Assembly: GCA_963801355.1 (NCBI GenBank) | Contig: CAWDEM010000004.1 | Span: 1,312,001-1,376,000 of the forward strand | DNA: 64,000 bases | From: Ignavibacteriota bacterium | GTDB lineage: Bacteria; Bacteroidota; Ignavibacteria; UBA10030; UBA6906 | Reading direction: 5' to 3' | Shown: in pieces, positions 16,745 to 36,453 of the stretch | Layout: every line of letters starts with the position of its first letter | Position numbering within the stretch: the first letter of the stretch is position 1 | The notes under the pieces: generated by a model | What the model saw: only the letters and a program-made list of their open reading frames with translations | What the model was told of the DNA's origin: nothing | Database searches by the model: none | Program-made: the position numbers and the translations under genes

Positions 16745-16752
16745 CGGGGGGC

Positions 16753-17535: not shown

Positions 17536-18906
17536 ATGGATACAACGTCCCGCTTCGATGCAACGCATCCCCTCCCCCCGGGGTGGTTCCGCTGGCTCGT
17601 GCTGATCCTGATCAGCTTTGCGATGTTCGGCAACTATTACATCTATGACAGCATCAGTCCGCTTGCCGACGTTCTCAAAGCCCAGCTCGGCTATTCCGAT
17701 TCCGAAATCGGGCTCCTCAACGCCATCTATAGTTTCCCCAATATCATCATGGTGCTCATCGGCGGACTGATTATCGACCGCATCGGCACCCGCAAATCCG
17801 TGGTGATATTCACCGCAGTCATCATGATCGGGGCTGCCGTGACCTCGGCGTCGGGAAATATCGTCTCCATGGCTGCCGGGCGGCTCATCTTCGGCCTGGG
17901 TGCAGAATCCATGATCGTCGCCGTCACCACAGCTGTGGCCCGCTGGTTCAAGGGCAAAGAACTCTCGTTTGCGTTCGGCATCAATCTCACTGTTGCCCGT
18001 CTGGGTTCGTTCCTTGCGTTGAACGCCCCGACGTGGGGAAAGAGTCTCTACGAATACTGGCAGACCCCGCTCCTTATCACCGTCGCAGCCGGCGTATTTG
18101 CCATGCTCTGTGCGGCGCTGTATGCGCTCCTCGACCGTTCGGCAACGCGGTGGTATGCGGTGGAAAGCGATGGACGTCAGGAGAAGGTCGTCATCAAAGA
18201 GATCTTCAATTTTGGAGGGTCGTTCTGGTATATCACAGCGCTGTGCGTCACGTTCTATTCGGCGATGTTCCCCTTTCAGACCTTCGCGATCAAGTTCTTT
18301 CAGGAGGCGCACGGCACGACGCGGGAAGTGGGGGGGAATCTCTCCAGCATGCTGACCCTGGCCGCCATGATCTTCACCCCGTTATTCGGCCTCCTGGCGG
18401 ACCGAGTCGGGAAGCGCGCCCTGTTCATGATGTTCGGCTCCGTGCTGATCATTCCCGTCTACCTTATGATGGCCTATAAGGTCGATGTCGCAACACCGCT
18501 CGGACTTTCGGGATACATCGCCTTGAATATCGACTTCTTTGATATCCATTCACTCATCCCCGCGTACCTTGTCATTCCGATGTCGATGATGGGGATTGCC
18601 TTCTCCCTGATACCCGCGATCATGTGGCCCTCGGTTGCATATGTCGTCGATCAGTCGAAGCTGGGGACCGCGTACGGGTTGATGACCATGATCCAGAACG
18701 TGGGATTGTTCGCGTTCAATCTTTTGATTGGATGGGCGAACGATCTTGCCGGTGCGGGGGCGATGCACCCTGAGGGGTACACGCCGGGGATGTGGATTTT
18801 CTCGTCGCTGGGGTTCTTCGGATTCGTGTTCGCGTTCTTGCTGCGCCGCCGCGAAACCGGGCCGGCCGCACATGGTCTGGAAACGATCACAACCAAAACG
18901 CGGTAG
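17536..18906 (+). CDS. MFS transporter, MFSD1-like
   Basis: About 12 TM helices, motif A 'GLIIDRIGTR', 'FGNYYIYDSISPL', 'GRLIFGLGAES', 'WFKGKEL'. Confidence 0.88.
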   Translation: MDTTSRFDATHPLPPGWFRWLVLILISFAMFGNYYIYDSISPLADVLKAQLGYSDSEIGLLNAIYSFPNIIMVLIGGLIIDRIGTRKSVVIFTAVIMIGAAVTSASGNIVSMAAGRLIFGLGAESMIVAVTTAVARWFKGKELSFAFGINLTVARLGSFLALNAPTWGKSLYEYWQTPLLITVAAGVFAMLCAALYALLDRSATRWYAVESDGRQEKVVIKEIFNFGGSFWYITALCVTFYSAMFPFQTFAIKFFQEAHGTTREVGGNLSSMLTLAAMIFTPLFGLLADRVGKRALFMMFGSVLIIPVYLMMAYKVDVATPLGLSGYIALNIDFFDIHSLIPAYLVIPMSMMGIAFSLIPAIMWPSVAYVVDQSKLGTAYGLMTMIQNVGLFAFNLLIGWANDLAGAGAMHPEGYTPGMWIFSSLGFFGFVFAFLLRRRETGPAAHGLETITTKTR

Positions 18907-18940
18907 GCACGCGGGTGTGATGCCTCTGTGTGCCCTGATC

Positions 18941-19528
18941 CTATTTCTTCCGTGTCGTCTTCTTTGCCGGTTTTTTCGCCTTGGGCGGCTTCGCCTCTTT
19001 CGGTGGGGGTGTTTCCTTCTTTGTGACGAGCACCTTCCCGAGTTCTGCCTTCAATTTTTCGTAAGAGGCAAAGCGCTCGGTGAAGGCGATCTTCCCGTCT
19101 GAGCGGAGGACGATGATTCTCGGGAGCTTGACGATTTCGTAACTGGAAATGACGTCCGAATCCCGTCCGTACAGCACGGTATAGGGAAGCTTAAAGCTCT
19201 GTGCGTCGGCCTCCACACGACCGCGCATGTCGATCGGGTTGATCGAAAGAATCGAGACGTTTTTGTATTCACTCCAGATCTTTTTGAGAGGCGGAAACTC
19301 CGCCTGGCATTCCCTTCACTTCGACTTCCAGAAATGAAGAATCACTACGCTCTTGCCCGCGTAACTCTGCAGCGTGACGTTCTTGCCCGTTCCCACTGCC
19401 GGCAGGCTGAAGGCCGGCGCTTTGACGCCCGGTGCCAATCCTTCCCCGGCAAAGAGCATGTGTGCGCAGATCGTGAATACGGTAATGGCAAGTATGGTTG
19501 CTGAGCGTCTCATAGATTCCCGGGTCAT
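18941..19528 (-). CDS. exported TlpA/AhpC-like thioredoxin-fold selenoprotein (U-R-E-C); joins ORFs 19316-19528 and 18941-19228
   Basis: Reading through TGA at 19316-19318 gives ...APAFSLP...VILHFWKSK-U-REC-QAEFPPL...KLPRIIVLRSDGKI with no other stop (195 aa). Signal peptide present; SECIS-like hairpin 10 nt downstream. Confidence 0.92.
19289..19305 (-). promoter_or_regulatory. SECIS-like element for UGA 19316
   Basis: AGGCGG[AGTTT]CCGCCT, loop starting at +17 from the UGA. Confidence 0.8.
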
Positions 19529-21822
19529 TTGAGGAGGACCATGCGTTGTGCAAGCATCGTTGTTCCACTGGAGAAGCGGCAGATATATACCCCGGAGCTC
19601 AGCCCCGATGCATCGAACCGGAACCTGTGGTACCCGGCAGACAGTACCTCGTTCGCCAGAGAGGTGATCTCCCGGCCGAGAGCATCAAAGATTGTCAAAC
19701 GGCATAGTGTTTGTACCGGCACGCCGATCTCAATGGTTGTCGTGGGGTTGAAAGGATTCGGATAGTTCTGACGCATGACAAATGTCTCCGGCAGACCTTC
19801 TGCGCGGTCCCGCACGGCGGCAGAACCCGAGAGGTTCAAGCGGTACACACCGCTTCCCTCCGTGCCCGCGTAGAGACGCCTGTTCGTCCGGTCGTACGCC
19901 AGACATGTCGCCCGCACATTGCCGAGGCCGTTGGAAAAGTTGTTCCAGTTCTTCCCCCTGTCTGTGCTCCGCCACACACCACTTGCTGCCCCGGCATAGT
20001 AGATCCCGCTGCTGTCGGGATTGCAGAGCAGCGTGTATGCGTACATATAGCCGGCCGGCACAGTCCAGCTTGAACCGGCGTCGGTGCTTGTATACACGCC
20101 ATTGTTTGTCGTTGCCGCAAGCACGTTTACATTGAAGGGATCGATGACGATTTTCGTGATTGATTCATACTGCTTGCCGAAGGTACTGCTCCCGATCTGA
20201 TTCCACGTGCTTCCGGCATTGGTTGACTTGTATATCCTGCTGTAGGTTGGCCACGTGCTGCCGGAGGCATACACTCCTCCACCGGCATACATGATATTTG
20301 TATTGCTGGCTTGAATAGCCAGGGTCTGCACCTCACCCCCGGCGGTGTCCAAAGCGATGCGCGTCCAGTGTGTTCCGTCGTCTGTCGATTGGTAGACAGC
20401 CATATGGGATGGCTCGGTCGTGCTTGCGGGATTGAGCTTTCCACTGCCACCCTGGTACAATACTGACCCCAGAGCTACGACATAACCGTTATCCATGGAA
20501 TCGTCGAGAGTTATCCAAGTGGACCCGCCACTTGTGCTCCTGAGGAGCGCCGATGTGCCTCACCCACCGCCTTCAAAGGCGTACAGACGCTCCGGGTTGA
20601 CGGGAGAGATGAAGACGTCTGTGACGTTTTCGCATGAATAGAAATCCGGCAGTCTGCTCCACGTTACCGTGGATTGGGTAGCTCCGCTGGTTTTGAAGAC
20701 TCCGCTGTAATTGATCCCTGCGTACATGATCGTGGGTGACGACGGAGCGCACACAAGAGCGGTGACCATAGTGCCATTCAATCCCGTGCTCGTCTGCCTC
20801 CATGATGCACCGGCATTGGATGATCGGAACACTCCTGTTCTGTTGCCGATGAACACGCACGCAGGGGTCGATCCTTCAACGACCAATGGGTCCACGCCGC
20901 TGCCGACAATGCCGCTACTGGAGGTAGTGTCCCAGGTGGCCCCGCCGTCGGTGCTCTTATAGACGCCATAGCTGTACGTCGAGGCGAACATGACGTCCGT
21001 ATTTGGCAGGTAAAATGCAAGCTTCTCGGGCGCCGGGACGTACACTCCAGTCCACGAACTGCCGCCGTTGCTGCTCCTGTAGATTCCCGCTCCGGAGGCG
21101 ACGAAGATCTTTCCTCCGCCGCCCGGGTCGACAAGGATGTCATTCACCATGCCCGGTAGTGTTCCCGTGATGTCACCGAAGACCGAACCGCCGTCTGTAC
21201 TCTTGAAAATCCGGCCATAGATATACGAACCAATAACAACATATCCCCCTGCATAAACGTGTTGGGTGTTCGTTGGATCAACCGCGACAGCGTATCCGTA
21301 GCCGGTTCCGCTCGCAAGCGTGCGTACGGTCCAGTCCGTTCCGCTGTTCGTCGTCCGAAAGTAGGCAAAGGACGATATGGACCCGTCGTAGAAGTAGCCG
21401 GACAGATGGAATGTGGACGGGCTCGCTGGATCCCGCGCCAGATCCTGCGCATAGCAGTTGGTGGGAAGGTTTATCGAGGTCCACGTCCCTCCGCCGTCGG
21501 TGCTGGAGAAGAGAATGGAGTAGGCAACACCATAGACACGTGATGGATTGGAGGGATCCACTTCGAGCATTTGAGGTGTTGAAGGAATGGTCGCTGTGGC
21601 GAACCAATGTTCGCCGTGATCCGTTGTCTTCCACCCGTTCCCCGGATAACTCTGTGTTGCAGCATATAATATACTGGTGTTTGAACGTGACTGCGCGAGT
21701 GCAGTTATGTATCCTCCTTCAGGGCCGACGGATTCCCATCCGGGGGTCTGTCCCGCCATCTCTGGAGGACCCAGCATGACAGGTATCGTCAGACACACCA
21801 GAAACAGCAAATGAGTTTTCAT
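19525..21822 (-). CDS. secreted BNR/Asp-box beta-propeller with T9SS-type C-terminal tail and in-frame UGA (putative Sec421); joins ORFs 20560-21822 and 19525-20496
   Basis: TGA at 20560-20562 is in frame: YAFEGGG-U-GTSALLRSTSGGSTW (an Asp-box repeat) runs into the downstream ORF. Signal peptide is only in the 5' part, QNYPNPFNP tail only in the 3' part. 765 aa. Confidence 0.8.
20516..20548 (-). promoter_or_regulatory. tandem hairpins, candidate SECIS for UGA 20560
   Basis: GCTCC[TCA]GGAGC followed by a perfect CAAGTGG[CGGGT]CCACTTG (loop at +33). Confidence 0.55.
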
Positions 21823-21862
21823 GCGGACCTCTGCTTGATTGTGCCCACCCGCCTCCGGGTGA

Positions 21863-22651
21863 TCAACCGGGAGCGGAGAGCAAATTGCGGATCATTGTGT
21901 ACATTTCGGTAGTACGTTTGTACAGATTGTCTATACGGTACCGGACTACTCCCTTGCGATCAATAATGATAAAAGTGGGTGGCACATTGCCGAAAGAAAT
22001 GCCAACCCGGTATGCGCCGAACAGTGCGCTGGTTGAGTCATAGACAAGCGGGTACGCTACGCCGCTCTGGGTACGGAATGTGCGGAGCCACGTGACTGAA
22101 GATGTGTTGTTCACCCCCACCACCGCAAGACTCTCACGCGGGAAGCTTATGAAGATTTGCCATTGCACAGACGGCAACTCCGTCTGAATGCAATCCATTC
22201 ACGTATGTTCGAAAAAGACGAGGAGAACGACTTTCCCCCTCTGCTTATGCATTTCGAACAGCGAGTCATCAATGGTCCGCACGGTAAAGTCAGGCGCTTC
22301 GTTGTCGAGGAATGGGCCGATCTTTGTCAGGCGCATGAGCAAAGCCGCCACCTCGTTGCGGCGGACTGTAACCATCGTATCCGAGCGGGCGCCCGAGCTG
22401 TCTGCCACGGTGAGCTTGTGCATCCCGGCGACAACTCCATGCAGGGTGCAGGGATTGGGCAATTTCCCCTGAGGAATGTCGTCCAGGGCGACAGAGATTG
22501 AATCAAACACAAGCGTATCCATCGCCGTAACCGTGAGGGTGCCGGTGAACGGTTCGGGCATCCCCGTGGGTGGATCTCCGCAGCCCTTCACCGCAATGGC
22601 ATACGCTGCCCCGCACAGAATGAGAAGCATGCGATAATGCCTGCGCGTCAT
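21863..22651 (-). CDS. lipoprotein: PEGA-like domain + TlpA/AhpC-like selenoprotein domain (U-M-D-C); joins ORFs 22199-22651 and 21863-22198
   Basis: VKGC lipobox; APDFTV...GKVVLLVFFEHT-U-MDC-IQTELP...VPPTFIIIDRKGVVRY; TGA at 22199-22201; 262 aa. Confidence 0.92.
22162..22194 (-). promoter_or_regulatory. SECIS-like element for UGA 22199
   Basis: ATTGCA-TT-CAGACGG[AGTTG]CCGTCTG-TGCAAT: 7-bp upper stem and 6-bp lower stem, loop at +20. Confidence 0.85.
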
Positions 22652-22663
22652 CTTCTCCCTCTC

Positions 22664-23692
22664 CTAGAATGCATAGACAGCTCCAAGCATGTAGGTGTTC
22701 ATCTGGACACCAAGATTGCTGGCATAGTAACGGTATTTTGTGTAGAGCAGCCAGACAGCGGACATTTCACGGTTCAACTGAACGCTGAATGCCCGTGACC
22801 GCATGTTGTCCGGAATGATGATGCCTTCTTCACCCAGGCTCACATTGTCGCTCTTGTTCTGATATAGACGGAATTTCACCCAGAGGGTCGTCGCCCAGTT
22901 CAGGTACTGAGCGACTTCCAGAGCCGGGGCGAGCGAAGAAATCCCCATGGAGTTCGTGTACCAGCGGAGCGAAAGATGCACGGCGGTCTGGGTCGGCAGG
23001 AACTGGGAAAGCCAGACGCTGACGTTGTGTGAATTGAATGAAAACAGATCTCCATTTGCGTTATAGTACACGTATTCCGCCTGGACCGCCGTGGAAAGTG
23101 TCAGGACCTGGCGCGCCTTGAGGCGGAGATTGATTGTACCCATTTTCCCGCCCACCGGACCGGCGTCGGCACCGCGAAAGTAGAACTGGATATCGCCCTG
23201 CACAGAAGTGAGAGCGCTCATATCCCACAGTGCTCCGGTACCGGCTTGAAAGGCCGCAAAGCCACGGGAGTCATATTGAAACTGCGTTGCTGCGATTCCG
23301 ACGACGGTTGAACTCAAGTTCCGGGTATACTTGATCTCGGCCAGGTGCTGCGCTACGTCTTCCTTGATGTCAGAGTACTGGTACTTCACCCCGAGTTGAG
23401 CTGCTTTGCCGACAAGGCGTGTGTATTTGATGAGTGCCCGCTTCTCGGGGAAGTTCGCGATGTACGGCAAGTTCTGCTGGTAACCGGACACGCCGTAGTT
23501 GTAGATGATCGGCTCGGGGTATTCGTACTCCCCATAATCGGCGTATTGAAGCTCAACTTTGAGCTTGCTCTTCAGCTCAAACGAGTCGTCGTAACCCTGT
23601 GAGTAAAGGGACGAAGACACGAGGGCAAGCGCCGGGAGGATGATGGCGACGTGGTACCTGCAGAGCCTATGAATATGTCTCACCTGAGACAT
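22664..23692 (-). CDS. putative outer-membrane beta-barrel protein
   Basis: Signal-like N-terminus, alternating aromatic/hydrophobic beta pattern (KYQY, QFQY, KYRYY), C-terminal ...GAVYAF; ATG at 23692 after GAGGG. Confidence 0.8.
   Translation of the reverse strand: MSQVRHIHRLCRYHVAIILPALALVSSSLYSQGYDDSFELKSKLKVELQYADYGEYEYPEPIIYNYGVSGYQQNLPYIANFPEKRALIKYTRLVGKAAQLGVKYQYSDIKEDVAQHLAEIKYTRNLSSTVVGIAATQFQYDSRGFAAFQAGTGALWDMSALTSVQGDIQFYFRGADAGPVGGKMGTINLRLKARQVLTLSTAVQAEYVYYNANGDLFSFNSHNVSVWLSQFLPTQTAVHLSLRWYTNSMGISSLAPALEVAQYLNWATTLWVKFRLYQNKSDNVSLGEEGIIIPDNMRSRAFSVQLNREMSAVWLLYTKYRYYASNLGVQMNTYMLGAVYAF
23675..23692 (-). promoter_or_regulatory. SECIS-like element for UGA 23703, overlapping the barrel start codon
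   Basis: Perfect ATGTCTC[AGGT]GAGACAT, loop at +18. Confidence 0.8.
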
Positions 23693-23696
23693 GGCC

Positions 23697-23930
23697 CTAC
23701 CCTCAGGTAGGGCAGGCCGCAGCCTCCCCGACGGCGCCGGTACCGTTCTCGATTTGCGAGATATCTTCGTCATTGTCCTGCAGGTTTTTCATGATCGCGC
23801 AATTGACGCGGCTTTCCATCTGCAGCGACTGACGTGACGATACACAGCTGGTGAGAAACGAGGAAAAAAGGAGGGAAATGACGATGAGAAGAATTGGACT
23901 GATGGTGTGTGATTCCCTGCCGCGAGCCAT
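23697..23930 (-). CDS. small lipoprotein selenoprotein ending C-P-T-U-G-stop
   Basis: GGGGAG RBS, hydrophobic signal with LTSC lipobox; ...GCC TGC CCT ACC TGA GGG TAG; SECIS-like hairpin downstream; 77 aa. Confidence 0.82.
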
Positions 23931-23980
23931 AACCACTCCCCTTAGGACCAGGATATGACGGGGGACTCCATCTGGGGGAA

Positions 23981-24009
23981 AAGTTAGGGGAACGAAAGAT
24001 CAATGTCAA
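23981..24009 (-). promoter_or_regulatory. sigma-70 promoter of the selenoprotein operon
   Basis: TTGACA-17 bp-TAACTT on the minus strand, about 50 nt before the lipoprotein start. Confidence 0.65.
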
Positions 24010-24011
24010 CA

Positions 24012-24072
24012 GATTTGGCGAATTTGGGAGGAATTTGGGAGAAATTTTGGGAAGAAATCGGGAGAAACGGGG
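24012..24072. repeat. degenerate ~10-bp repeats (AATTTGGGAG-like)
   Basis: gatttggcg aatttgggag gaatttgggag aaattttgggaag aaatcgggag aaacggg. Confidence 0.55.
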
Positions 24073-24102
24073 GGGAGCACGTCTTCACGATGCGACAGTT
24101 GT

Positions 24103-24159
24103 TTGACTGTGGGCATGTCCTTCACTATCATAGCATAGACTGATCTACCATAGACTGAT
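24103..24159 (+). promoter_or_regulatory. sigma-70 promoter followed by an 11-bp direct repeat
   Basis: TTGACT-17 bp-TATCAT; CATAGACTGAT at 24134 and 24149. Confidence 0.55.
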
Positions 24160-24230
24160 TTGCCTGAGATTGCCCCTGAATTCCAGTCCAGTCCAGTCTC
24201 CTTCTTCCCGGATTACAGACGTGGTGCCAC

Positions 24231-26384
24231 GTGAACACTCTGAATTCCCTCGGTTGCGCGCTCTTTGCGCTCTTCCTCACGGCGGAAACCGGTCTCAGTC
24301 AGTGGGTTCAGGTTGGACCGTCAGGCTTCCTTTCCTGTCTCCTAAAGACCCCCGCAGGGCTCTTTGTCGGCTCCGCGGGCGCCGGCATCTACTTTTCCTC
24401 TGACAATGGCATCTCATGGCGAGGCGCAAATCTTGGGCTCACAAGCCAAAATGTTACCGGCATGACCAATATCGGACAGGATGTCTTTGCCTCGACACGC
24501 GGGGGAGGTGTGCTGCTCACTACAGACAACGGTGCTACTTGGGCTCCAGTCAACTCGATGCTGATCAGTCAGGATGTTGGATGTGTGACAGCTATCGGCA
24601 CTGGAGTCCTGGCAGGACCAACCGGATATGGAGCGTTCTTCTCTCCGGATCGCGGAACGACCTGGCAGCCCTTCGGCAAAGGACTCGCCATGGAAACTGT
24701 GAACGCCTTCTTTTCGAAGGATTCCAGGATTTTTGCGGGGACTATGCAGGGTGTGTACGCAACGTCAGACGGTGGAAAGAATTGGTTTTCCTCAAATGCC
24801 GGTCTCCCCGCCAACGGCCGGGTGACCGCATTCGCGTCGACTGACACACTGATCTTTGCAGGCGTCCACAATGGAGGGGTCTACATCTCTACAGACAACG
24901 GCGTTTCGTGGTCAACTGCCGGCACGGGACTTACCGACAGCAATGTGACGTGCCTGGCGAGCGTTGTTCTCCCCGGGTCGACGGCGCGGAGACTCCTGGC
25001 GGGCACGGCAAGAAGAGGATTGTTTGCATCCACTGATAACGGCGCAAATTGGGCTCCAGTGGATCTCGGACTGTCGAGTCTTCAAGTGGATGCGCTCGCA
25101 TCCGACGGCTCAGTTGTCTATGCGGCGCTGGAGGAAGGAGTGAGAGTCTCGAGTGATGCGGGCCTTCACTGGGGAGACGCCGGAGCGGGTGCGCCTACAA
25201 GAACGGTGATGGGTCTCGGACTCTTCGGAACGAATCTGTATGTCGGCACTAACCGCACTGGTGTCTATGTCACGGCCGACATGGGCAATACCTGGGCTCC
25301 TGCAAACCAGGGCCTGACGGGTTACGACATTTCGGCCATGACTGTTGCGGGTACTACTCTCTTCGTGGGGACGTCCGGGGGAAGACTCTTCCGTCGTGAG
25401 ATGTCTGATTCCAACTGGTTTGCGGCGAGCTCCCAGTTCGCAAATCTGCCCTTCAATGTGCTCGGCGCCGCGGGCAATGTCCTACTTGCCAATCCAGGCT
25501 TTCGTGGAATTCATTATTCCACAGACATTGGCGCCAACTGGCTTTACGGTCAGGGATCGGAAGCCGACCAGAACGGGACATCCTTTCTCTCCTTCGCGGT
25601 GGGCCAGGGTTACATTTTTGCAGGGTCATTGAACTTCGGAGCCTTCCGCTCTGCCGACAATGCTGTCAGCTGGCAACGCAAGAACAACGGCCTGGGCAAT
25701 TTCACCGTGCGCGCGCTCGCCCTGGATGGTTCGCTCCTCTTTGCCGGAACCTCGGCCGGCCTCTTTGTGTCGAGCAACAACGGCGAAACCTGGCAAAGCG
25801 GCAGCACGATGCTGGCCGGCTCGCTGGTGAGGGGCCTCGCGGTCTCCGGCAACACGATCATCGCCAGCACCGGAGACCAGGGCATATGTGTGTCGACAGA
25901 TCATGGCATAACCTGGCAACAGGCCAACCAGGGATTGTCCGGCGCGGCCACAACTCTCGTGTCCTGCGATGGTTTGCTCGTCTATGCTGGTTCGACTCTG
26001 GGTGGGCTTTATCGCCGCTCACTTTCCGAGATGCTCTCTTCTCTTAGTGGCCTCCCGGCGTTGCGAGAGCTCCCGACCGATTTCCTGCTTTGCCAGAACT
26101 ACCCCAACCCGTTCAATCCAACGACCACGATCCGTTATGGCTTACCCAATCGTTCGCAAGTCGCTCTGATAGTCTTCAACACGCTCGGTCAACGAGTGGC
26201 ACAGCTGGTTGATGGCGAGAAGGATGCAGGGTATCACGAAGTGCAGTTTGACGCATCAGGACTCTCATCAGGCGTGTACCTGTATCGGATGCAGGTCCGC
26301 CCTATGGACTCCGCCATCGGGCGGGACTCCAAGAGCGGACCTGGGAGCTATGTGGACGCGAGGAAGCTGGTCTTGTTACGCTGA
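24231..26384 (+). CDS. secreted BNR-repeat beta-propeller protein with T9SS-type C-terminal sorting domain
   Basis: Signal peptide, more than ten S/TxDxGxxW repeats, QNYPNPFNPTT...RKLVLLR. Confidence 0.9.
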   Translation: MNTLNSLGCALFALFLTAETGLSQWVQVGPSGFLSCLLKTPAGLFVGSAGAGIYFSSDNGISWRGANLGLTSQNVTGMTNIGQDVFASTRGGGVLLTTDNGATWAPVNSMLISQDVGCVTAIGTGVLAGPTGYGAFFSPDRGTTWQPFGKGLAMETVNAFFSKDSRIFAGTMQGVYATSDGGKNWFSSNAGLPANGRVTAFASTDTLIFAGVHNGGVYISTDNGVSWSTAGTGLTDSNVTCLASVVLPGSTARRLLAGTARRGLFASTDNGANWAPVDLGLSSLQVDALASDGSVVYAALEEGVRVSSDAGLHWGDAGAGAPTRTVMGLGLFGTNLYVGTNRTGVYVTADMGNTWAPANQGLTGYDISAMTVAGTTLFVGTSGGRLFRREMSDSNWFAASSQFANLPFNVLGAAGNVLLANPGFRGIHYSTDIGANWLYGQGSEADQNGTSFLSFAVGQGYIFAGSLNFGAFRSADNAVSWQRKNNGLGNFTVRALALDGSLLFAGTSAGLFVSSNNGETWQSGSTMLAGSLVRGLAVSGNTIIASTGDQGICVSTDHGITWQQANQGLSGAATTLVSCDGLLVYAGSTLGGLYRRSLSEMLSSLSGLPALRELPTDFLLCQNYPNPFNPTTTIRYGLPNRSQVALIVFNTLGQRVAQLVDGEKDAGYHEVQFDASGLSSGVYLYRMQVRPMDSAIGRDSKSGPGSYVDARKLVLLR
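26295..26340. repeat. in-frame ~45-bp palindromic insertion in secretion tail (copy 1)
   Basis: GTCCGC..TGGA..CGCC ATCG GGCG..TCCA..GCGGAC; near-identical copy at 28389-28433. Confidence 0.7.
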
Positions 26385-26657
26385 CCTTGGCGCACAATGA
26401 TTCATGGCCCGGCATTGTCGGGCCCGTCCACTTTGTCTCCATCCAGTGAACCGCTTCGAACGGTGGAGTATATTGCGCGCGGAATCACTTGCGAGGAAGA
26501 CGCAATTCTCCGTCAGGCTCCCCGTCACCCAACGGCACGGAATACCGCGAATACGGTATTGAAATGCCCAGCAATTAAACCGTATATTTCCAGGAATGCC
26601 GCACCAGAACAACACACAGGCAGGCCAAACCCAATTCATCAACTGGAGGATACTGTC

Positions 26658-28478: not shown

Positions 28479-28495
28479 GCTATAGCCAGTAATTG

Positions 28496-28539
28496 AACAA
28501 AAATAGCCCGGGCAGAGATGTCCGGGCCTTTGTTTGTTT
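28496..28539. terminator. bidirectional intrinsic terminator between convergent genes
   Basis: A-rich tract, GCCCGGGCA-GAGA-TGTCCGGGC, then CTTTGTTTGTTT. Confidence 0.7.
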
Positions 28540-28666
28540 CGAGAGGAACATCGTCCACCGTCCTTTCGAGTGTCGGACGGTGAAAGTGAGCGCACACTAA
28601 ATCGCACACTCCGAGTGCAATTTCCTGTGCAGCGCGTGAGGTGGGCAAGAACAAAAGCGGTGAAAA

Positions 28667-28765
28667 TGGCGGGGACGGGTGGGGATCGAACCCACCTCCC
28701 GGGCTTTTCAGTCCGGGACAACGGATTTGAAGTCCGCGGGGACCACCAGGTTCCCTTTCATCCCC
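28667..28765 (-). tRNA. selC: tRNA-Sec (anticodon UCA)
   Basis: 99 nt; GCGGA-CTTCAAA-TCCGT anticodon arm, TGGT D-loop, long variable arm with GAAA loop, GTGGG-TTCGATC-CCCAC, G73 and encoded CCA; directly after selD. Confidence 0.96.
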
Positions 28766-28825
28766 GATCACAACGGCCCAATTTCGCGATTCCCCCGGAG
28801 AATTCCAAGACCCTCCAGGTCACGA

Positions 28826-29914
28826 CTATCCCTCCAGTTTCAAGAAGACTGGCCTTCCTTCCGGTGATTGCATCAAGGGAATGACCTCTCCCACTTGACG
28901 CGCCGCAGTATCTCCAGCCTCGTGCAATGCATGTACTACTTCATGGACGCGATCTGACGGGACCGCCGCAAGGAGTCCGCCGGATGTCTGCGGATCGGTC
29001 ATCAACCTGAACTGGGCCCCGGATACCGCATCCGAGCGCATTGTGTGGGGTTCGACGTACTGATCCGATGTGATCTTGTGAGCTGATGGCGATACATCCA
29101 TGAGCGCAAAAGTTGATTCAAAACAAGGCAGGAGCGAGGCGTGGAAGACCAGAGTCACGCCGGCGTTCCGGGCGATGGGCAACGCGTGACCGAGCAATCC
29201 GAATCCCGTAACGTCCGTCATCGCGCTGACCTCGAACTTCTCGAGGACCCCGGAGGCGTACATATTCAGACGCTGCATGCTTGTGGCAAACTCTTCATAT
29301 TGTGCGATGGTCAGGCGATCTTTCGAAAGTGCCTCGGCATAGATGCTCGTGCCAAGCGATTTTGTGAGAATCAGCGCGTCACCGGCACGCGCGTGTGCGT
29401 TGGTCACAACCCGGTCAGGATGGATCGTGCCGGTCACGCTCATGCCGTAGAAAATCTGCTCCTGTTCCATAGAGTGGCCGCCCATGAGGACGACGTGGGC
29501 TTCCTGGAGTTTTTCCGCTGCGCCGGTGAGAAGCTTCGCTATGACTTCGGTGGGTATCAGCTTTGCGGGATACGCCAGGATATTCATCGCCGTCAGTGGC
29601 CGTCCGCCCATGGCCCACACATCGGAAAGACTGTTGGCAGCGACGATGCGCCCGAAAGTCCGCGCGTCGTTCACCACCGGTTGAAAGAAATCCAGTGTTT
29701 GCACCAGCGCCAGTTCCGGCGTGAGACGGTATACACCCGCGTCGTCCATGGTATCCATGTCGACCAGGATATCCGGTGACGATATCCGGGGAAGGCGGGA
29801 AAGAATCCCTGCCAACCTGGCAGGGGAGATTTTGCCCGCTCACCCAGCGCAGGCGGCGTAGGAGAGCAGTCGTATCTCCTTGCCACCCGGCATGTAGGGA
29901 GCCGTTTCTATCAT
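28826..29914 (-). CDS. selD: selenophosphate synthetase, Sec-containing (C-A-G-U-A-G-K); start 29914 or 29893
   Basis: IRLLSYAACAG-U-AGKISP with TGA at 29840-29842; DDAGVY, TLDFF, ANSLSDVWAMGG, DVTGFGLLGH, DPQTSGGLL. Confidence 0.96.
29807..29825 (-). promoter_or_regulatory. SECIS element of selD
   Basis: CCCTGCC[AGGTT]GGCAGGG, loop at +22, with AATC/GATT lower stem. Confidence 0.88.
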
Positions 29915-30732
29915 GGCGGACATCCAATCCTATTATTGAGGGGATGTACAGCGAACGTGTTGTCCTTCCACTCCTCTGCAAGCAGTGCAGCGCCGAGTGC
30001 GCCGGTGAATTCCGGATCATCGGGGACCAGAATCGTCCGCCCGGTAACCGATTGAAGCGCGGCCACCACTCCCGGATTGCGGGCAACGCCGCCGGTGAAG
30101 ATCACCTGGTCTTCCCATCCAAGCCGGCCAGCCATGCCGATCACACGGCGCGCGACGGACTGAAACACGCCATTGAGGATGGAGGAGGCGGAGATACCCT
30201 GATGGAGCAATCCCACGATCTCGGTCTCGGCGAATACCGCGCACATCGAAGTGATCTCGCAAATTGCCGTGGTGGAAAGAGCGAGCCGGCCGGTATCCTC
30301 CACCGGCACCGAGAGCGTTCGTGCGACGGTCTCCAGAAATCGCCCGGTCCCCGCGGCACAGCGGTCGTTCATCGCGAACTCCAGCACCGAGGCCCGGGCA
30401 TCCAGCCGCATCATCTTGGAATCCTGGCCGCCGATATCAATTACCGTGCGAGCATCCGGAAAGCATGCGTGTACACCGGTCGCGTGACACCGGATTTCGG
30501 AATATGTTCCATCGGCGGCGGTGAAGTAGTGCCGGCCGAGACCCGTGGCAATGGTGCACTGCACGTCCTGCCGCTGAATGCCGTGGGTCTCCAGAACGCG
30601 CTGGTACAGCAATCCGGCATTCTCTCCGGGCGACGGACCGGATGGACACATCCCCCGGCCAAGCATCACGCCGTCTTCCAGAAGCACCACCTCGATTGAG
30701 GTTGAGCCGATGTCAATGCCCGATGTCAACAT
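29911..30732 (-). CDS. ASKHA-fold [4Fe-4S] ATP-dependent activase (HgdC/BadF/DCCP-R type)
   Basis: GIDIGSTS, ATGLGR, IDIGGQDSK, MNDRCAAGTGRFLE, SMCAVFAETE, FTGGVARN. Confidence 0.92.
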   Translation of the reverse strand: MLTSGIDIGSTSIEVVLLEDGVMLGRGMCPSGPSPGENAGLLYQRVLETHGIQRQDVQCTIATGLGRHYFTAADGTYSEIRCHATGVHACFPDARTVIDIGGQDSKMMRLDARASVLEFAMNDRCAAGTGRFLETVARTLSVPVEDTGRLALSTTAICEITSMCAVFAETEIVGLLHQGISASSILNGVFQSVARRVIGMAGRLGWEDQVIFTGGVARNPGVVAALQSVTGRTILVPDDPEFTGALGAALLAEEWKDNTFAVHPLNNRIGCPP

Positions 30733-32008
30733 GAGTCTTGCTGTGCTCGTGGAGCACCTCGCTAAACGATTCCAGGCGCACGGAGAGTCTGTCCAGATCC
30801 TCGTACGAATAGTCTGTCACAATGGTAAGCGAAGGCACAGATCGTTTGCCGAGTTCCCTGTCAAGCGCCCGCGCCTCAATATTGTATGCATGACAAAATG
30901 AGAGAATGTGATGCACTACGCCTTCAATGTGGTACATGTCGAGAATCTGCCGGATGTTGTCCACACGCTCGCTGTTGGGCGAAAAGCACGCACAGTCAAT
31001 GGCGAAGTACCTGTCGGCAATCGCATCCAGCAGGCCGTCTATGTCACGAGGAGATTCATCGACCGGGTCCCGGAAGTACCGCATACCCGTGCATGTTTCG
31101 TCGGCAACGATTCGCATGCCGTGCTGTTCCACCGCGAAATGGACTTTTGCATAGCCGAGGGGTGACGGAGATCCGGCCACAAGAATCCGCGGGCCACGGT
31201 GCGGGTAGGCCGGGACTTCTCGCTGGACGCGGTCGTTGAGCTCATCCAGGAGTTCCTGTGCAATACGGATGAAGGCGGTCGGGTCCATCGCGAGGGCTGC
31301 CTGAGAGACCAGCAGGGCATCCAGTCCGGACAGGGGAGGCTCTTCGTTTTTCCGGAGTGCGTTGATGTCCTGAAGGACCCTCCTGCGTTTATTCACAAGT
31401 GCAACTGACTCCCGGAGGGTTTCACAGGTAATCGTCGTGCCACTCAGTTGTTCAATGAATTGCCGGAACTCGCGCACTTCAGAGCGCCAGAGCTCTTTGT
31501 CCAGAGGATTCTTTTTCTGGGGCACTTCGAGGACACGAAAGCCGAGGAGATCCCAGGCCTTCTTCTTAGCATCGCAAGTTGTTTCACCGACTACGGCATC
31601 CTTGAGGTTCTTGTAGGGACAGGTTCCGCTGAATGCCATGCCAAACGTTGACCGGATCAGCGGGCAGATATCCCGCGGGAACATTTTGTCCGCGTAGTCC
31701 ACCGGCCAGTTGCTGCCGCCGCAGAGGGGTATGGGGATGACACCTGCCGCAAAGGCGATTTCGTCCGGCACATAGATGCAAAAAGTTCCGATGGATTTGC
31801 TGCCCGCGCTTCTCTGCGCGGCGATTTCCGCTACGCGTGCGCCATGGCTGGCGTAAAACGCCTCGTCGAACAATGCCATGGCAGACGGCCGCCGCTCCGC
31901 AGCACCAAACGTTCGCTTGTGCAGCGCGGAGTTGTAGGCCTCCAGACGGTCATGCAGCTCGAGATTGACACCCACAGATGCCAGCAAGCTTCGCAATTCC
32001 TGTCCCAT
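30713..32008 (-). CDS. 2-hydroxyacyl-CoA dehydratase superfamily protein, single-chain double-cubane-cluster reductase type
   Basis: GTFCIYVPDE, LCGG, PRDICPLIRS, CPY, GETTCDAKKK, ETCTG, IDCACFSPN, FCH; adjacent activase; TGATG overlap with selB. Confidence 0.85.
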   Translation of the reverse strand: MGQELRSLLASVGVNLELHDRLEAYNSALHKRTFGAAERRPSAMALFDEAFYASHGARVAEIAAQRSAGSKSIGTFCIYVPDEIAFAAGVIPIPLCGGSNWPVDYADKMFPRDICPLIRSTFGMAFSGTCPYKNLKDAVVGETTCDAKKKAWDLLGFRVLEVPQKKNPLDKELWRSEVREFRQFIEQLSGTTITCETLRESVALVNKRRRVLQDINALRKNEEPPLSGLDALLVSQAALAMDPTAFIRIAQELLDELNDRVQREVPAYPHRGPRILVAGSPSPLGYAKVHFAVEQHGMRIVADETCTGMRYFRDPVDESPRDIDGLLDAIADRYFAIDCACFSPNSERVDNIRQILDMYHIEGVVHHILSFCHAYNIEARALDRELGKRSVPSLTIVTDYSYEDLDRLSVRLESFSEVLHEHSKTHVDIGH

Positions 32009-33906
32009 CAAAGTCCCTTCAGCACGCGCACATCTTCGTGCCGCTCGGTGAACCCATTCCTGTCCAGGTATTCCAGCAGGGGAACTACATACTTGCGTGT
32101 CATTGCCAGATGCTGCCGGAGCTCACTGGTTGTGCCCTTGCCATGGATGCGCAGGTACTCGCCCAGACGTTTTTGTGCCTCTGTGATGCCGTTCCTGTGC
32201 ATCAACAGGCCCTCTTCGAGGTGAATCAGATCCCCGCATTCCGTGATGTGTGTGACCAACTTCTCGGCGCCCTTCCCCAGTTCGGCCACAATTTCCCCGG
32301 TATCAGGTGGTGTCAGCAGATTCGTGAGGTACTTCTGCAGAATCATGTCCCTGAGTCTTTTCTGGTCGGCGGAGAGGGATACGGTGTGCCCTTCACAAGC
32401 GAGCTGCTCTCCATGTTTGACGATACGTGATTCTTTCAGGAGTTCGTCTACGATGATTGCGAGGAGCCGCTTGTCAATGGCCGGTTTGATGCGAGAAGCC
32501 AATTCGGGGGCGGGGACACCCACGCGGAGAGGGTTCTCCTGATGAAAACGCGTCAGCGCATCCAGCACGTGCGTGCGGAGGGTCAGCTTGTTGCTGAGGG
32601 CAAACCACGTCTTGCCTTCGAGGCAGAGCACGCAACGGCGCTCCTCGAGGACGTGGAGATACTGCAGGCATGTCTCCAGAGGGATCGCTGCTGTCCTAGC
32701 AAGCTCAGCTGCGGTTACAGGTGCAACGGCAAATCGCTGGAGTTGCTGCAACACATGTTCTGCTGGGTCGCCTTTGACCGCCTGCTGCAGGCGTTCAAGC
32801 ACATCGCCCTGGAATCTCCGGTGTTTTCCGGGCCTGACGTCCAGGACCGTCCCGCCTCCAAGAGTTTGAAGAGGCGAATAACTCCTGAGGACATACCGGT
32901 CTCCATCGTCGGCCACGATGGGCCGCTCAAAGTGGAGCTGGACAAAACCCTCCTTCCCGGGCTTCAGCTCTTCCTGGTCGAGAAGGAGGACCCGTGCGAT
33001 GACTTCCGTAGTCCCCAAATGGATGCGGACGCGCGTGCGGTGCTGCAACGGCCCCGGTGCAGTGGCGAGGTAGAGAAGATGAGCATCCACCATGGACGTC
33101 GGGTGGTAGTATCCCGGGGTCCCAAGCACGTCGCCGCGTTCCACAACTTCACGTTCCAGCCCTTGCAGATTGACTGCCGTGCGAAGCCCAATGCTGCTTT
33201 CCTGGACGGTCTGATCGTGGACCTGGATTCCCCGAACGCGAAGAGGTCTGCCGATGGGGAGGAGTTCAACCGTGTCATCCACGCGGATACTGCCCGAAGC
33301 GATCGTTCCCGCGACTACCGTCCCGAAGCCCTTGATGGAGAAGACTCTGTCGATGGGCATCCGGAAGACCCCTTTGTCGGTCCGCTGGCGGACCAACCCG
33401 GCTTCCCGGAGGATGGCGCGGTGCAGCTCGTCTATGCCCTCTCCGGTCACGGCGCTCACCCTGTACAGAGGAGCTCCGCCGAGGAAAGTACCCTTCACCA
33501 GCTGCGCAATATCGGCGCTGACCAGGTCCAGCCACTCCGGTGCCACAATGTCCACCTTGTTCAGCGCTATCAGCCCGCGGGGAATCTTCAGGAGACGGAG
33601 GATTTCCAGATGCTCCCGGGTTTGAGGCATGACGCCGTCATCCGCCGCAACGACAAGAAGGGCAAAATCCACCCCGGTCACACCGGCCACCATGGTTTTG
33701 ACGAACCGCTCGTGTCCCGGGACGTCGATGATGGCCACCGAGTCTCCCAGGAATGCGAACCCGAGGTCGGTGGTCATCCCGCGTTCCTTCTCCTCTTTCA
33801 GGCGGTCCGTATCGATGCCGGTGAGCCTTTTGACAATTGCAGTCTTTCCGTGGTCGATATGTCCCGCCATGCCCATGACTACATGTCGTGTGTGAGGGCT
33901 ACCCAT
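32008..33906 (-). CDS. selB: selenocysteine-specific elongation factor
   Basis: [30 protein letters not shown]-terminal winged helix [13 protein letters not shown]. Confidence 0.97.
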
Positions 33907-35305
33907 GGTGCACGACTTCCTGAAATGCCTTGGCAACGAGCTGCACGTCATCGTCGGCAATCGTTCTGCAGTCGAGCAGAAGTGATTGATCCCGTATGCG
34001 TCCGATGACCGGAGTGCTTGACAGGCGGAGCTCACGGGCAAGGCCGTCGGGCGACAGGCCCTCGATGGTGCACGCGACTACTGATGTCGGGAGGGTGGCT
34101 GCGGCGAGCGATCCGCTGCCTACTTCGGCGGTATCTTGTTCCACAGAACATTTCCCGCGGCTCCCAAGAATCGGGGTGAGGAGATCAAGCAGGTGCACAG
34201 CGCGGGCTTTCACGGTATCCTGTGACGCGGTGAGGGAACGGAACACAGGGTGCTCCCGCGCCAGACTGCCTTCATCAAGAAACAGACGGAGTGTCGCCTC
34301 CAGCACTGCAAATGTCATCTTGTCACATCGCAACACCCTGATGAGCTGGTTGCTTTTGAGACGGTCTACAAGTGCACGCTTACCGAGGATGATGCCGCAC
34401 TGGGGCCCGCCAAGAAGCTTGTCGCCACTGAAGCACACGAGGTCGGCCCCGCCGGCAATCGACTCCTGAACCATCGGTTCATGAGGCAGACCCCAGCGGC
34501 GGAGGTCAAGAAGGGCGCCACTGCCGAGGTCGTCGATGGCGATGAGGTTGTGCTGGTGTGCGAGCTCGGACAATTCGTGTATCGAAACCTGGCTGGTGAA
34601 GCCGACGATATGATAGTTGCTCTGGTGAACTTTCAGTATCACTGCGGTTTCGGGGGAGACGGCGGCCCGGTAGTCTTTAAGATGGGTACGATTCGTTGTG
34701 CCCACCTCAACAAGTCGTCCGCCGCTGCGTCGGAGGACATCAGGTATGCGGAAAGAGCCTCCGATCTCCACCAGCTCACCGCGTGACACAATGACTTCAC
34801 GCCCCTCCGCAAACGTGTTCAGTACCAGAAGTGTGGCCGCTGCGTTGTTATTTACGACAACGGCCGCTTCTGCTCCGGTGATCTTCCGGAGCAGATGCTC
34901 GACACTCCGGTAGCGGTCGCCGCGTTTGCCGGTGTCGAGATCCAGTTGCAGAGTGCAGTAGCTGCGGACTGCATCTGTCAGGGCGCGCTGCGCGCTGCGT
35001 GCCAGCGGGGCGCGCCCGAGGGCTGTATGAAGAATTACGCCGGTCGCATTGACGGCCTGCCGGACTCCCGGCAGGAGATTGCGTTGAGCCCGGTCCATGA
35101 TCTCGCCCAGGATCGCATCGTAGGAACCTACTGTTTGCAGGTGTCCGTCGCGGATGCGCTCGCGAAGACTCTCGAGGTATGTGCGGATTTCATCTGCCAC
35201 AAGTTCACGCGGATAGTGTTCCAGCAGAGGAGCCAGTCGCCCATCCTCGAGGAGGAGATCAACCTTGGGCAGCTGTTGAAACAGATCGTTCCGGGCCTCG
35301 CTCAT
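33899..35305 (-). CDS. selA: L-seryl-tRNA(Sec) selenium transferase
   Basis: NATGVILHTALGRAP, VNNNAAA, SRGELVEIGGSFRIP, EVGTTNRT, DLGSG, FSGDKLLGGPQ. Confidence 0.97.
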   Translation of the reverse strand: MSEARNDLFQQLPKVDLLLEDGRLAPLLEHYPRELVADEIRTYLESLRERIRDGHLQTVGSYDAILGEIMDRAQRNLLPGVRQAVNATGVILHTALGRAPLARSAQRALTDAVRSYCTLQLDLDTGKRGDRYRSVEHLLRKITGAEAAVVVNNNAAATLLVLNTFAEGREVIVSRGELVEIGGSFRIPDVLRRSGGRLVEVGTTNRTHLKDYRAAVSPETAVILKVHQSNYHIVGFTSQVSIHELSELAHQHNLIAIDDLGSGALLDLRRWGLPHEPMVQESIAGGADLVCFSGDKLLGGPQCGIILGKRALVDRLKSNQLIRVLRCDKMTFAVLEATLRLFLDEGSLAREHPVFRSLTASQDTVKARAVHLLDLLTPILGSRGKCSVEQDTAEVGSGSLAAATLPTSVVACTIEGLSPDGLARELRLSSTPVIGRIRDQSLLLDCRTIADDDVQLVAKAFQEVVHHG

Positions 35306-36197
35306 GAGAAATGCCCCAGGTGACGGAGACATGTTTGCACACCGTACACTTCAAGCAACGGATACAGTCGGGCGAATTCGGATCATCCGAAATTTTGATG
35401 TCCACCGGGCAGACCTTCACGCAGAGATCGCAGTCCGCGCATTTGCCTTCGACATGCATGCGCATAAGACTGACACGATTGAAGTAGGCATAGATTGCGC
35501 CCAGCGGGCAGAGTGCGCGGCAGAAAGGTCGTTTGATCAGGATGAACAAGACGAGGAAGATGCCGAGAATAGACAACTTCAGGACATAGAGCCATCCCAC
35601 CATATCGGGTTCGATCACCGGGGCTCCCAATGCAGGATCGACAGGGTTCCAGAGCATCCAGGGAATCCCGGCGATGAGTGTCCCCCAGGGGCAGATGCGG
35701 GAGAACCAGTGGTCCTCTGTGAGCAGGGGGAGGAGAATTGCGAGGACGGCGAGCGAAAGAAACTTGCCGGATTTGAAGAATCGGGGCAGGCGTAACTTCA
35801 CACTCGGGATCTTGTGGATGGTGTCCTGAAGCCAGCCGAAGGGACAGAGCCATCCACACGCCGCGCGTCCGAACAACATGCCAATTGAACCGAGCATGCC
35901 GAGCAGGAAGAACGGCACTTGCCTGATTGCGACAAACGACTGCAGGATACCGATGGGGCAGGCCATGAAGGCTGACGGACAGGCGTGACAATTCAGAAAG
36001 GGCACACACCCCTGTTTGAGGGGGCCCGCATAGATCTGCTTGGTGAACGCGACGGGGTAGTAACCGTTGGAGAGGATGAGGCCGATGCCCACAACAATGA
36101 AGAGCCGGATCTTACGGAGTCTGGAGTAGAGCGGCCTGCTCTCTCTGGTTGTTGCGGGATGTTCCGGGATCAACTGATCCCGATGCAGTCCAGTCAT
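35259..36197 (-). CDS. membrane-bound 4Fe-4S protein (NapH/RdxA-like); start ATG 36197 or TTG 36173
   Basis: CVPFLNCHACP..CPIG, GRAACGWLCPFG, FCRALCPLG, CADCDLCVKVCP, CIRCLKC..C; several TM helices. Confidence 0.88.
   Translation of the reverse strand: MTGLHRDQLIPEHPATTRESRPLYSRLRKIRLFIVVGIGLILSNGYYPVAFTKQIYAGPLKQGCVPFLNCHACPSAFMACPIGILQSFVAIRQVPFFLLGMLGSIGMLFGRAACGWLCPFGWLQDTIHKIPSVKLRLPRFFKSGKFLSLAVLAILLPLLTEDHWFSRICPWGTLIAGIPWMLWNPVDPALGAPVIEPDMVGWLYVLKLSILGIFLVLFILIKRPFCRALCPLGAIYAYFNRVSLMRMHVEGKCADCDLCVKVCPVDIKISDDPNSPDCIRCLKCTVCKHVSVTWGISHERGPERSVSTAAQG
36165..36182 (-). promoter_or_regulatory. SECIS-like element for UGA 36194
   Basis: Perfect CGGGATC[AGTT]GATCCCG, loop at +19. Confidence 0.85.
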
Positions 36198-36328
36198 AGC
36201 GTGGCGCTTTCGATGCGGATCAACGTCAAGTCTCCGCCCACGATTCCCAGCGCCAGCAACGTGATGAAGAGCAGCATCAGGACGATGCGCACTCCCCAGT
36301 GCACGAGCAAAAGGCCGGCCATCTTCAT
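36170..36328 (-). CDS. 52-aa single-TM selenoprotein ending U-L-D-C-I-G-I-S (CD1871A-like CxxC family, Sec form)
   Basis: ...GCC ACG CTA TGA CTG GAC TGC ATC GGG ATC AGT TGA. LxLxCIGI tail upstream of a membrane 4Fe-4S gene; SECIS-like hairpin present. Confidence 0.85.
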
Positions 36329-36453
36329 GGCGATCTCGCTCTGTGTGGAGGAAAAGTACGAAACGGCAAATACACACGCAAGTTGCATCTTGTTGCGGCC
36401 TTCCGCACTTTATTATAGAGAACAGACCCTTTCACATGGGCGGGCCAATTTCG

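Follow-up and report, generated by a model that had tools for sequence, protein, structure and literature searches.

In a 64,000-nucleotide stretch of an Ignavibacteriota genome (G000:C4:1312001-1376000, hereafter the window; the genome, G000, measures 4.8 Mb and is 100% complete), two minus-strand operons occupying positions 18941-36328 combine a selenocysteine (Sec, U) decoding machinery with Sec-containing redox proteins of the cell envelope. We assign a probability of roughly 0.55 to the reading that they encode a mobile Sec-based thiol/selenol relay, leading from the cytoplasm to the cell surface and travelling with its own Sec machinery. Operon A encodes a lipoprotein, an outer-membrane barrel, the thioredoxin-like protein TlpA1, a beta-propeller with a type IX secretion system (T9SS) tail, and TlpA2; operon B encodes a 52-aa peptide, a NapH-like Fe-S protein, SelA, SelB, a double-cubane cluster protein (DCCP), an activase, SelD and the tRNA-Sec gene selC (Table 1). 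The genes, the conservation of their UGA codons, their co-distribution, several gene fusions and an empty insertion site were observed, and from these sequence features we infer the flow of electrons.

Six genes of the two operons contain one in-frame TGA each, followed by a hairpin, and correspond to peptide U45, SelD U28, lipoprotein U76, TlpA1 U151, propeller U421 and TlpA2 U66. A signal anchor, lipobox or signal peptide could be read from the sequence of five of these six proteins, in agreement with the first-pass annotation, which had counted at least six UGA/hairpin genes and five membrane-anchored or exported products. For comparison with other genomes we used 42 barrel loci, found by alignment of the barrel. 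The TGA was present at the same codon in 36/36 distinct peptide motifs, in 30/30 TlpA2 loci and in 11/11 propeller orthologues, 10 of which also had the Cys located 24 residues upstream; in TlpA1 it was found in 40/42 loci (remaining two not scored, zero Cys), and in the lipoprotein in 37/42 (zero Cys), with the gene elsewhere in the genome for four of the other five. Cys never substituted the UGA in these five sets. Since the TGA is kept at the same codon across orthologues, these UGAs are not there by chance. Past the UGA, the orthologues have either a continuing open frame or a conserved tail. Cys homologues are known for the peptide in its wider family and, by fold, for TlpA, thioredoxin (Trx) and SelD; no Cys form was found of the lipoprotein (0/42 loci) or of the propeller among the orthologues compared.

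Selenocysteine insertion sequence (SECIS) elements are expected 16-37 nt after the UGA, and a SECIS-like hairpin with a G-containing loop was located in this range at all six sites, the propeller loop standing at +32. Hairpin energy was set aside as proof of a SECIS, since most G000 hairpins were, taken singly, within the stability range of synonymous re-codings (fractions of 0.06-0.44), with the exception of TlpA1 (0.012), and the propeller window ranked third of 78 BNR-motif windows. Among 27 relatives, however, the CPTU motif of the lipoprotein is directly followed by a stop codon in 26, and in nearly all of them a predicted G-loop hairpin lies about 18 nt downstream, in non-coding DNA and with differing stem sequences; judged from sequence, these hairpins are stronger SECIS evidence than the G000 energies. 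A genome-wide UGA scan of G000, which was incomplete, recovered 4/6 island sites and one new candidate, and showed no FdhA-type R-x-U/C-H motif. In two places a SECIS region meets the following gene: the barrel ATG forms the first bases of the lipoprotein SECIS stem (23692-23675), and the peptide UGA shares bases with an ATG of the Fe-S frame (36196-36166), with the peptide stop codon inside its own SECIS. The barrel start M-x-Q-V-x-H is conserved because it lies within the lipoprotein stem, and a coupling of downstream translation to selenium supply through these overlaps is possible.

Table 1. Features of the inserted block, with positions in the window
Feature	Position	Strand	Basis or location
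Inserted block, 17.5 kb	18907..36452		between major facilitator superfamily (MFS) gene (end 18906) and uvrB (start 36460)
TlpA2, signal peptide + redoxin, U66-R-E-C	18941..19513	-	profile match, conserved TGA
765-aa BNR beta-propeller, T9SS type A tail, C397 + U421	19525..21822	-	TIGR04183
TlpA1, lipoprotein (C24), redoxin domain, U151-M-D-C	21863..22651	-	profile match, conserved TGA
342-aa 16-strand outer-membrane beta-barrel	22664..23692	-	model pLDDT 82; remote DUF3570 relative
77-aa lipoprotein, lipobox C29, Gly/Ala linker, C-terminal C73-P-T-U76-G	23697..23930	-	DUF4266-like
Two Sec-free T9SS-tail genes	24231-26384; ~26400/26670-28478	+	between selC and lipoprotein
selC, tRNA-Sec	28667..28765	-	ARAGORN; RF01852 67.9 bits
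selD, U28 (CAGUAGK)	28826..29923	-	TIGR00476 327 bits, cut-off 125
DCCP-R-type ATP-dependent activase	29911..30732	-	TIGR00241 231 bits, cut-off 125; PF01869
DCCP	30713..32008	-	NF040772 390.5 bits, cut-off 350
selB	32008..33906	-	TIGR00475 360 bits, cut-off 242
selA	33899..35305	-	TIGR00474 585 bits, cut-off 268
NapH-like Fe-S protein, four transmembrane (TM) helices, C-terminal 2x[4Fe-4S]	35259..36197	-	PF12801; start ATG 36197 or TTG 36173
52-aa single-TM peptide, U45xxC (LULDCIGIS), Sec form of CD1871A-like family	36170..36328	-	HH, TGA conservation

The presence of selA, selB, selC and selD within the block, claimed in the first-pass annotation, was borne out, with all protein genes above curated cut-offs and a single tRNA-Sec copy in the genome. 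That annotation named neither the DCCP pair nor the two plus-strand T9SS-tail genes. Moreover, the two operons proved to be co-distributed. Of all 277 genomes in the order, nine have the Fe-S protein, G000 counted, and exactly these nine have selA; the barrel is present in eight of them. The Fe-S protein, selA and the lipoprotein were each found in 41 of the 42 other barrel genomes. Thus the operons are not independently distributed, and their linkage is not unique to G000, since all parts form one uninterrupted run in L009; independent distribution, or unique linkage together with sel trees that match the host tree, had been named beforehand as counting against a common island. The barrel loci are titled Bacteroidota/Ignavibacteria, KSB1, Calditrichota, LCP-89, Zixibacteria, Hatepunaea or unclassified, and no barrel was found in a 400-genome sample of the phylum. 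Fe-S or sel genes lie within 10 kb of the barrel in 31/42 loci; the distant loci follow the order lipoprotein-barrel-TlpA1-TlpA2-peptide-Fe-S-selA, the segment from barrel to Fe-S protein forming one run in about 20 of them, and in L016-L018 the barrel comes directly after selD. The core of the system is the lipoprotein, barrel, TlpA1, TlpA2, peptide, Fe-S protein and sel genes, with the propeller and DCCP as accessory parts. Two selA matches were recorded in 17/42 barrel genomes (G460-G478, G488), some of which may be split or distant copies. The earlier statement that Sec usage is reported as uncommon in Bacteroidota and relatives was not found in the portions of the literature consulted; our own count is 9/277 in the order.

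At the inner membrane, the peptide resembles CD1871A-type CxxC peptides (HH probability 98%) in having a TM helix, a C-terminal CxxC-IG-type motif and a position upstream of a 4Fe-4S protein, with a match to NF040920 (E 0.18, 11.7 bits; best Sec relative 21.9) below the 32-bit cut-off. The Fe-S protein was modelled with four TM helices (pLDDT 78). Both of its ends are placed inside because Lys/Arg density is high in the N-terminus, loop 2 and the C-terminus (0.17-0.29 per residue, against 0.03-0.06 in loops 1 and 3); invariant Cys41/47/50/57 and Cys146, counted from position 36128, are thereby predicted at the outer face, and two CX3CP motifs and eight ferredoxin Cys at the inner one. A solved relative was reached only via the ferredoxin motif and no VIA match had Z>=2, which is no proof of a new fold. 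In the wider Fe-S family, represented by the best 80 of 560 metagenome loci, a peptide lies just upstream in 75 (68 with Cys and 7 with Sec; 5 not found), and in 52 a TlpA-like gene is no more than 4 kb away. Sequence comparison assigns the peptide and Fe-S protein to a widespread CD1871A/NapH-like/TlpA trio, as its Sec version. The Cys trio itself (TlpA, CD1871A peptide and Fe-S protein; L183-L262) is common, with 560 relatives, seems unstudied and would lend itself as a tractable model of the inner-membrane step.

Gene fusions bear on the source of electrons for this pair. An N-terminal GltD-like FAD/NAD(P)H/Fe-S extension gives the Fe-S protein frames of 627-830 aa in 17 barrel genomes (homology checked in 15), a GltD-like domain is fused at its C-terminus in L183, and a DmsB/HydN-like ferredoxin is fused to it in L022. 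Because three kinds of cytoplasmic module are fused, electrons probably enter the Fe-S protein from the cytoplasm. The proposal that the Fe-S protein and the peptide act as an electron source thus gains from these flavoproteins and from the association of the Cys trio with TlpA, the transfer itself being deduced from sequence. The DCCP has the features of NF040772 double-cubane reductases, namely a score above the cut-off, the seven-Cys motif (first gap 18 instead of 19) and an adjacent activase, and occurs in 17/42 barrel genomes (E 1e-30). It was absent from the genomes with a long fused Fe-S frame (0/17) and present in 17/25 of the other barrel genomes; as an alternative electron input we keep it as a lead only, since fused and unfused groups follow phylogeny and DCCP generally tracks SelD.

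At the outer membrane, the barrel has no Sec, and no Cys in its mature part, and its Foldseek matches are solute porins. It has no Pfam match to DUF3570 itself, which was matched by 21/32 homologues at E<=0.1 (best 5e-6), by HH (93%) and in Atlas (0.94). The lipoprotein reached an HH probability of 87.5% with DUF4266 over the N-terminal 30 columns, partly lipobox, and had no match to PF14086 (DUF4266), ending in CxxU where DUF4266 has CXC; the two have in common DPxM, a conserved Glu, a linker rich in Gly and a pair of redox residues at the C-terminus. Furthermore, no ApbE (PF02424) was found in the complete G000 genome, and the flavinylation motif [S/T]GA[S/T] is present in 1/32 barrels. The pair is accordingly classed, by sequence, as a putative remote, ApbE-free, selenium form of DUF3570/DUF4266. 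In same-family genomes without selA, a Cys DUF4266/DUF3570 pair (L288:2379-8457, L289:3763-9916) stands between a propeller/HZS-alpha lipoprotein and a protein with a T9SS tail, an arrangement reminiscent of barrel plus cargo.

The predicted complex of barrel and lipoprotein scored 0.76 against 0.01 for the best control, above a mark reached by 116/157 solved and 2/215 mismatched pairs (own alignments, counts rough), with contact agreement of at least 59% and a partner pLDDT of at least 56. In this model the lipoprotein contacts alternating residues of barrel strands, including invariant R193, E258, R274, R320, Y322 and S324. The C-terminal Phe of outer-membrane barrels marks the periplasmic side; mapped on the barrel model, lipoprotein residue 19 lies at the periplasmic end and residues 34-35 at the outer end. 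The model supports a lipoprotein that threads the barrel lumen from the periplasmic side, and by extrapolation its linker and CPTU tail, beyond residues 34-35, would be free at the outer mouth.

The propeller has a signal peptide and a TIGR04183 tail (32 bits, cut-off 23), by which it is predicted to be T9SS cargo. It is an accessory part, present in 9/42 barrel loci, and thus optional in the relay that the first-pass annotation suggested to continue to lipoprotein, barrel and surface propeller. In L295 the lipoprotein lies away from the barrel, upstream of a propeller-like gene. Among related loci we also noted a second TlpA1-like Sec gene with U-GGG-C (L010:3452-4255), two Sec propellers in one locus (L014:12174-21021), two tandem Trx-like UxxC genes on the minus strand (L034:14611 and 15361), and, in a repeat-rich protein that looks exported and adjoins the module, a further candidate UGA (GD-U-ADC) accompanied by a 7-bp hairpin (L026:949).

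To call the island self-contained, as the first-pass annotation did, was too strong, as a seventh selenoprotein is encoded on another contig (G000:C8:1151802-1153331), with a signal peptide, a thioredoxin domain (U51GGC) and TPR repeats. Five other Sec genomes of the order have close orthologues of this Trx-TPR protein, all with TGA, and in G603 and G602 these adjoin the island; the Trx-TPR gene of G000 is followed by a stand-alone DsbD-N domain gene (G000:C8:1151802-1153908; L105:9803-11909). The argument drawn from a missing DsbD/CcdA likewise fails, given that a full-length DsbD (741-codon frame) and a CcdA-like protein are encoded outside the window in G000, and the domain was found in 42/42 barrel genomes. 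The contig with the Trx-TPR gene also carries an arsenic/metal-resistance-like cluster (G000:C8:1263758-1270961; ArsR, Acr3, permease, thioredoxins, CcdA-like), named by a look at the sequence and one Pfam match.

In the proposed relay, cytoplasmic electrons would enter the NapH-like protein via its inner 2x[4Fe-4S] domain, delivered by the fused NAD(P)H-flavoprotein in 17 relatives and, in G000, probably by an unfused protein of ferredoxin type or by the DCCP pair. They would then cross the inner membrane to the outer-face Cys cluster and reduce the UxxC of the peptide, by analogy with ferredoxin:thioredoxin reductase, in which an Fe-S cluster reduces a disulfide. The peptide would in turn reduce the periplasmic UxxC thioredoxins TlpA1, TlpA2 and the off-island Trx-TPR, and these would reduce the CxxU tail of the barrel-threading lipoprotein, a step for which binding is predicted and the redox reaction presumed. 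In the weakest step, the tail, on its flexible Gly/Ala arm at the outer mouth, would reduce a partner outside the cell, which in G000 is probably the T9SS propeller (C397/U421) and elsewhere another substrate. It is a more tentative idea, and a rather doubtful one, that the system represents a previously undescribed trans-envelope route without cytochromes or flavinylation outside the cytoplasm, from NAD(P)H/ferredoxin through the Fe-S protein, a UxxC micro-protein (a reductase independent of DsbD and, as a Cys protein, widespread) and Sec thioredoxins to a swinging C-terminal Sec arm that the barrel displays at the surface. Such a route would bring along its own expansion of the genetic code and would have spread across phyla.

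Several points weigh against the relay. DsbD/CcdA, here and in all 42 barrel genomes, is another possible electron source for TlpA, and with a propeller in just 9/42 barrel loci the surface acceptor is not fixed. In addition, G599 has the peptide, Fe-S protein, sel genes and TlpA2, and neither barrel nor lipoprotein was found in it. The modelled lipoprotein ended before U and its last nine residues had no confident contacts, so that the position of the tail is extrapolated. Sequence gives no direction of electron flow, and related genomes are non-independent samples.

An unlikely alternative is the capture of selenium or metal(loid)s, in which barrel and CxxU lipoprotein would bind or import selenite, Se(0) or a thiophilic metal, to be reduced and passed on by the UxxC proteins; DCCP and DCCP-R would make selenide for SelD or detoxify the substrate, and the Fe-S/peptide pair would supply electrons. 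The DCCP and activase genes directly upstream of selD, the position of the barrel after selD in L016-L018 and its porin matches are in line with this, as is the report, in the part of the preprint available, that 955/970 strong NF040772 proteins belong to SelD-encoding assemblies (Haft and Gwadz, bioRxiv 2022.07.06.499078). However, 25/42 barrel genomes are without DCCP (E 1e-30), the lipoprotein is predicted to fill much of the barrel lumen, neither permeases nor ABC transporters recur among the clustered neighbours, and all seven selenoproteins found are module members, so that uptake solely for Sec synthesis would be circular.

It is still less probable that the module serves envelope disulfide upkeep only, the UxxC proteins and the lipoprotein repairing or isomerising periplasmic, outer-membrane and T9SS thiols with housekeeping DsbD as electron source, and the Fe-S/peptide pair being a separate Sec client beside the sel genes. 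Against this, barrel, TlpA1, TlpA2, peptide and Fe-S protein stay together in a single run in about 20 distant loci, TlpA lies by the Fe-S gene of the Cys trio in 52 of the best 80 of 560 loci, and no DsbD gene recurs among the clustered barrel neighbours; for it speak the DsbD domain in every barrel genome, the DsbD-N gene after Trx-TPR, the 171 T9SS tail motifs of the genome, and the assignment, as far as the accessible text goes, of canonical DUF3570/DUF4266/thioredoxin clusters to DsbD (PMC8238504). Inward flow through the same wiring, with the surface arm oxidising external thiols, sulfide or selenide and electrons passing to NAD(P)+ or ferredoxin, appears the least probable of all. GltD-type flavoproteins and Fe-S relays are reversible, and the anatomy is symmetric as to direction, but TlpA/ResA-type folds usually act as reductases. 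The DCCP pair, moreover, is described in the sections available as an ATP-driven reducing system (PMC9351452).

Regarding mobility, the MFS gene directly adjoins uvrB in the congeners G002, G003 and G004, with a gap of about 50-120 bp, as expected of an empty site; blastn matches of G002 cover 14339-18906 and 36453-41708, two segments separated by about 100 bp in that congener. Congener G001 was uninformative on the insertion site, as MFS was not found and uvrB lies at a contig end. Among 61 relatives, G000 counted, selA was found in two, and in none of the four congeners (93-97% completeness). Operon B has the same gene order in G007 at another genomic site; in this genome a second partial tRNA-Sec lies about 3 kb downstream of selC (L001:685-745), as expected of a selC-integrated element. 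Profile searches of the block found no integrase, no terminal repeats were found at its ends, and none of the short contig pieces from sequencing runs that were similar to both operons spanned a junction. The GC profile, proposed as a check, gave 57.2% for the block and 58.8% for the flanks, without a strong composition shift, and a promoter scan found 7 where 7.0 were expected. The two T9SS-tail genes at 24231-28478, with zero in-frame TGA and many paralogues in G000, are absent from the selD-lipoprotein interval of L009 and L010, and are local passengers that split the block. Genome-wide, G000 has 171 T9SS-tail motifs of NYPNPFN type, a very large expansion of secreted proteins.

The UvrB tree sets families f1 and f8 cleanly apart; in the six-protein island tree (14 rows) f8 was together and f1 was not separated, and an f1 clade was not rejected (p-AU 0.487). 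A quick tree of SelA only had placed G000 with the other family (support 84), a placement that we discarded as the six-protein tree left it unresolved. Island distances from G000 were 0.82-0.93 for every one of the five members of the order that were measured and 1.0-1.17 for four genomes from elsewhere, against UvrB distances of 0.25 to 1.54 to the genomes compared, so that the island/UvrB ratio drops from 3.7 to 0.76; as the distances were computed under different models, the trend alone is meaningful. Tree topology alone is no proof of transfer and is compatible with family-level vertical descent. Nevertheless, because of the occurrence in 9/277 genomes, the empty site and the branch lengths, the island was probably gained laterally, as the first-pass annotation had suspected, with repeated loss as the alternative.

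Compared with known systems, the outer-membrane part is closest to the ApbE-DUF3570-thioredoxin-DUF4266 clusters described, in the portion of the paper available, by Meheust et al. 2021 (PMC8238504), of which 316 lack DsbD and some include it. Both have a small secreted lipoprotein whose gene precedes those of a DUF3570-type protein and of thioredoxin-like proteins. The island part differs from these clusters in having CxxU instead of CxC, no ApbE, a flavinylation motif in a single barrel of 32 and no PF14086 match, and in its linkage to the NapH-like/peptide pair and sel genes, not DsbD. The inner-membrane part shares peptide architecture and position, Fe-S family and TlpA neighbour with the CD1871A (NF040920)/4Fe-4S/TlpA trio of Firmicutes and others, for whose function our literature searches found no paper; here the first Cys is Sec, the score is below the NF040920 cut-off and the genes are tied to outer-membrane parts. 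The Fe-S protein resembles NapH/NosR/PceC-like proteins (PF12801) in its four TM helices, two CX3CP motifs and 2x[4Fe-4S], and departs from them in its extra invariant outer-face Cys cluster, the lack of an FMN-binding domain and 56 bits with TIGR02163 (cut-off 213). The SAO locus, as outlined in the part of the preprint consulted (Haft and Gwadz, bioRxiv 2022.07.06.499078), is likewise a multi-selenoprotein neighbourhood beside DCCP and activase; the island has no ABC transporter or SaoL/C/T model match, and has diderm envelope parts and its own sel genes.

As for single proteins, TlpA1, TlpA2 and Trx-TPR fall under the UxxC redoxin/Prx-like/Trx folds that are listed, together with SelD, among 119 prokaryotic selenoprotein families (PMC13188914, 2026, Table 1). 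That table, the part of the source available, has no entry for the CPTU lipoprotein, the LULxCIG peptide or the T9SS propeller. TsoA (LULAxC) has a spacing unlike that of the peptide, and NF045695 gave no match; in NCBIfam of June 2026 no model was above its cut-off for lipoprotein or peptide, and none beyond the tail for the propeller. A KSB1 paper mentions selABD, with no clients named in the text accessible (PMC9012183), and the system is not described in the consulted parts of deep-Sep, BSepDB and a sorting-signal preprint, nor elsewhere in the literature searched, although the supplements of BSepDB and Meheust et al. may list some of the proteins. Three candidate selenoprotein families are added (CPTU lipoprotein, UxxC membrane peptide and T9SS propeller), and a use is offered for the Sec genes that uncultured lineages of Bacteroidota, KSB1, Calditrichota and LCP-89 carry. 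In this case the decoding of Sec seems to move together with a redox module of the envelope, not with formate dehydrogenase. Testable functions are proposed for two orphan systems: the DUF3570/DUF4266 pair would be a redox arm threaded through the barrel, and the common CD1871A/NapH-like/TlpA trio would, alongside DsbD, be a second reductase acting across the membrane. In brief, the island is a new selenium variant that joins these two known orphan modules.

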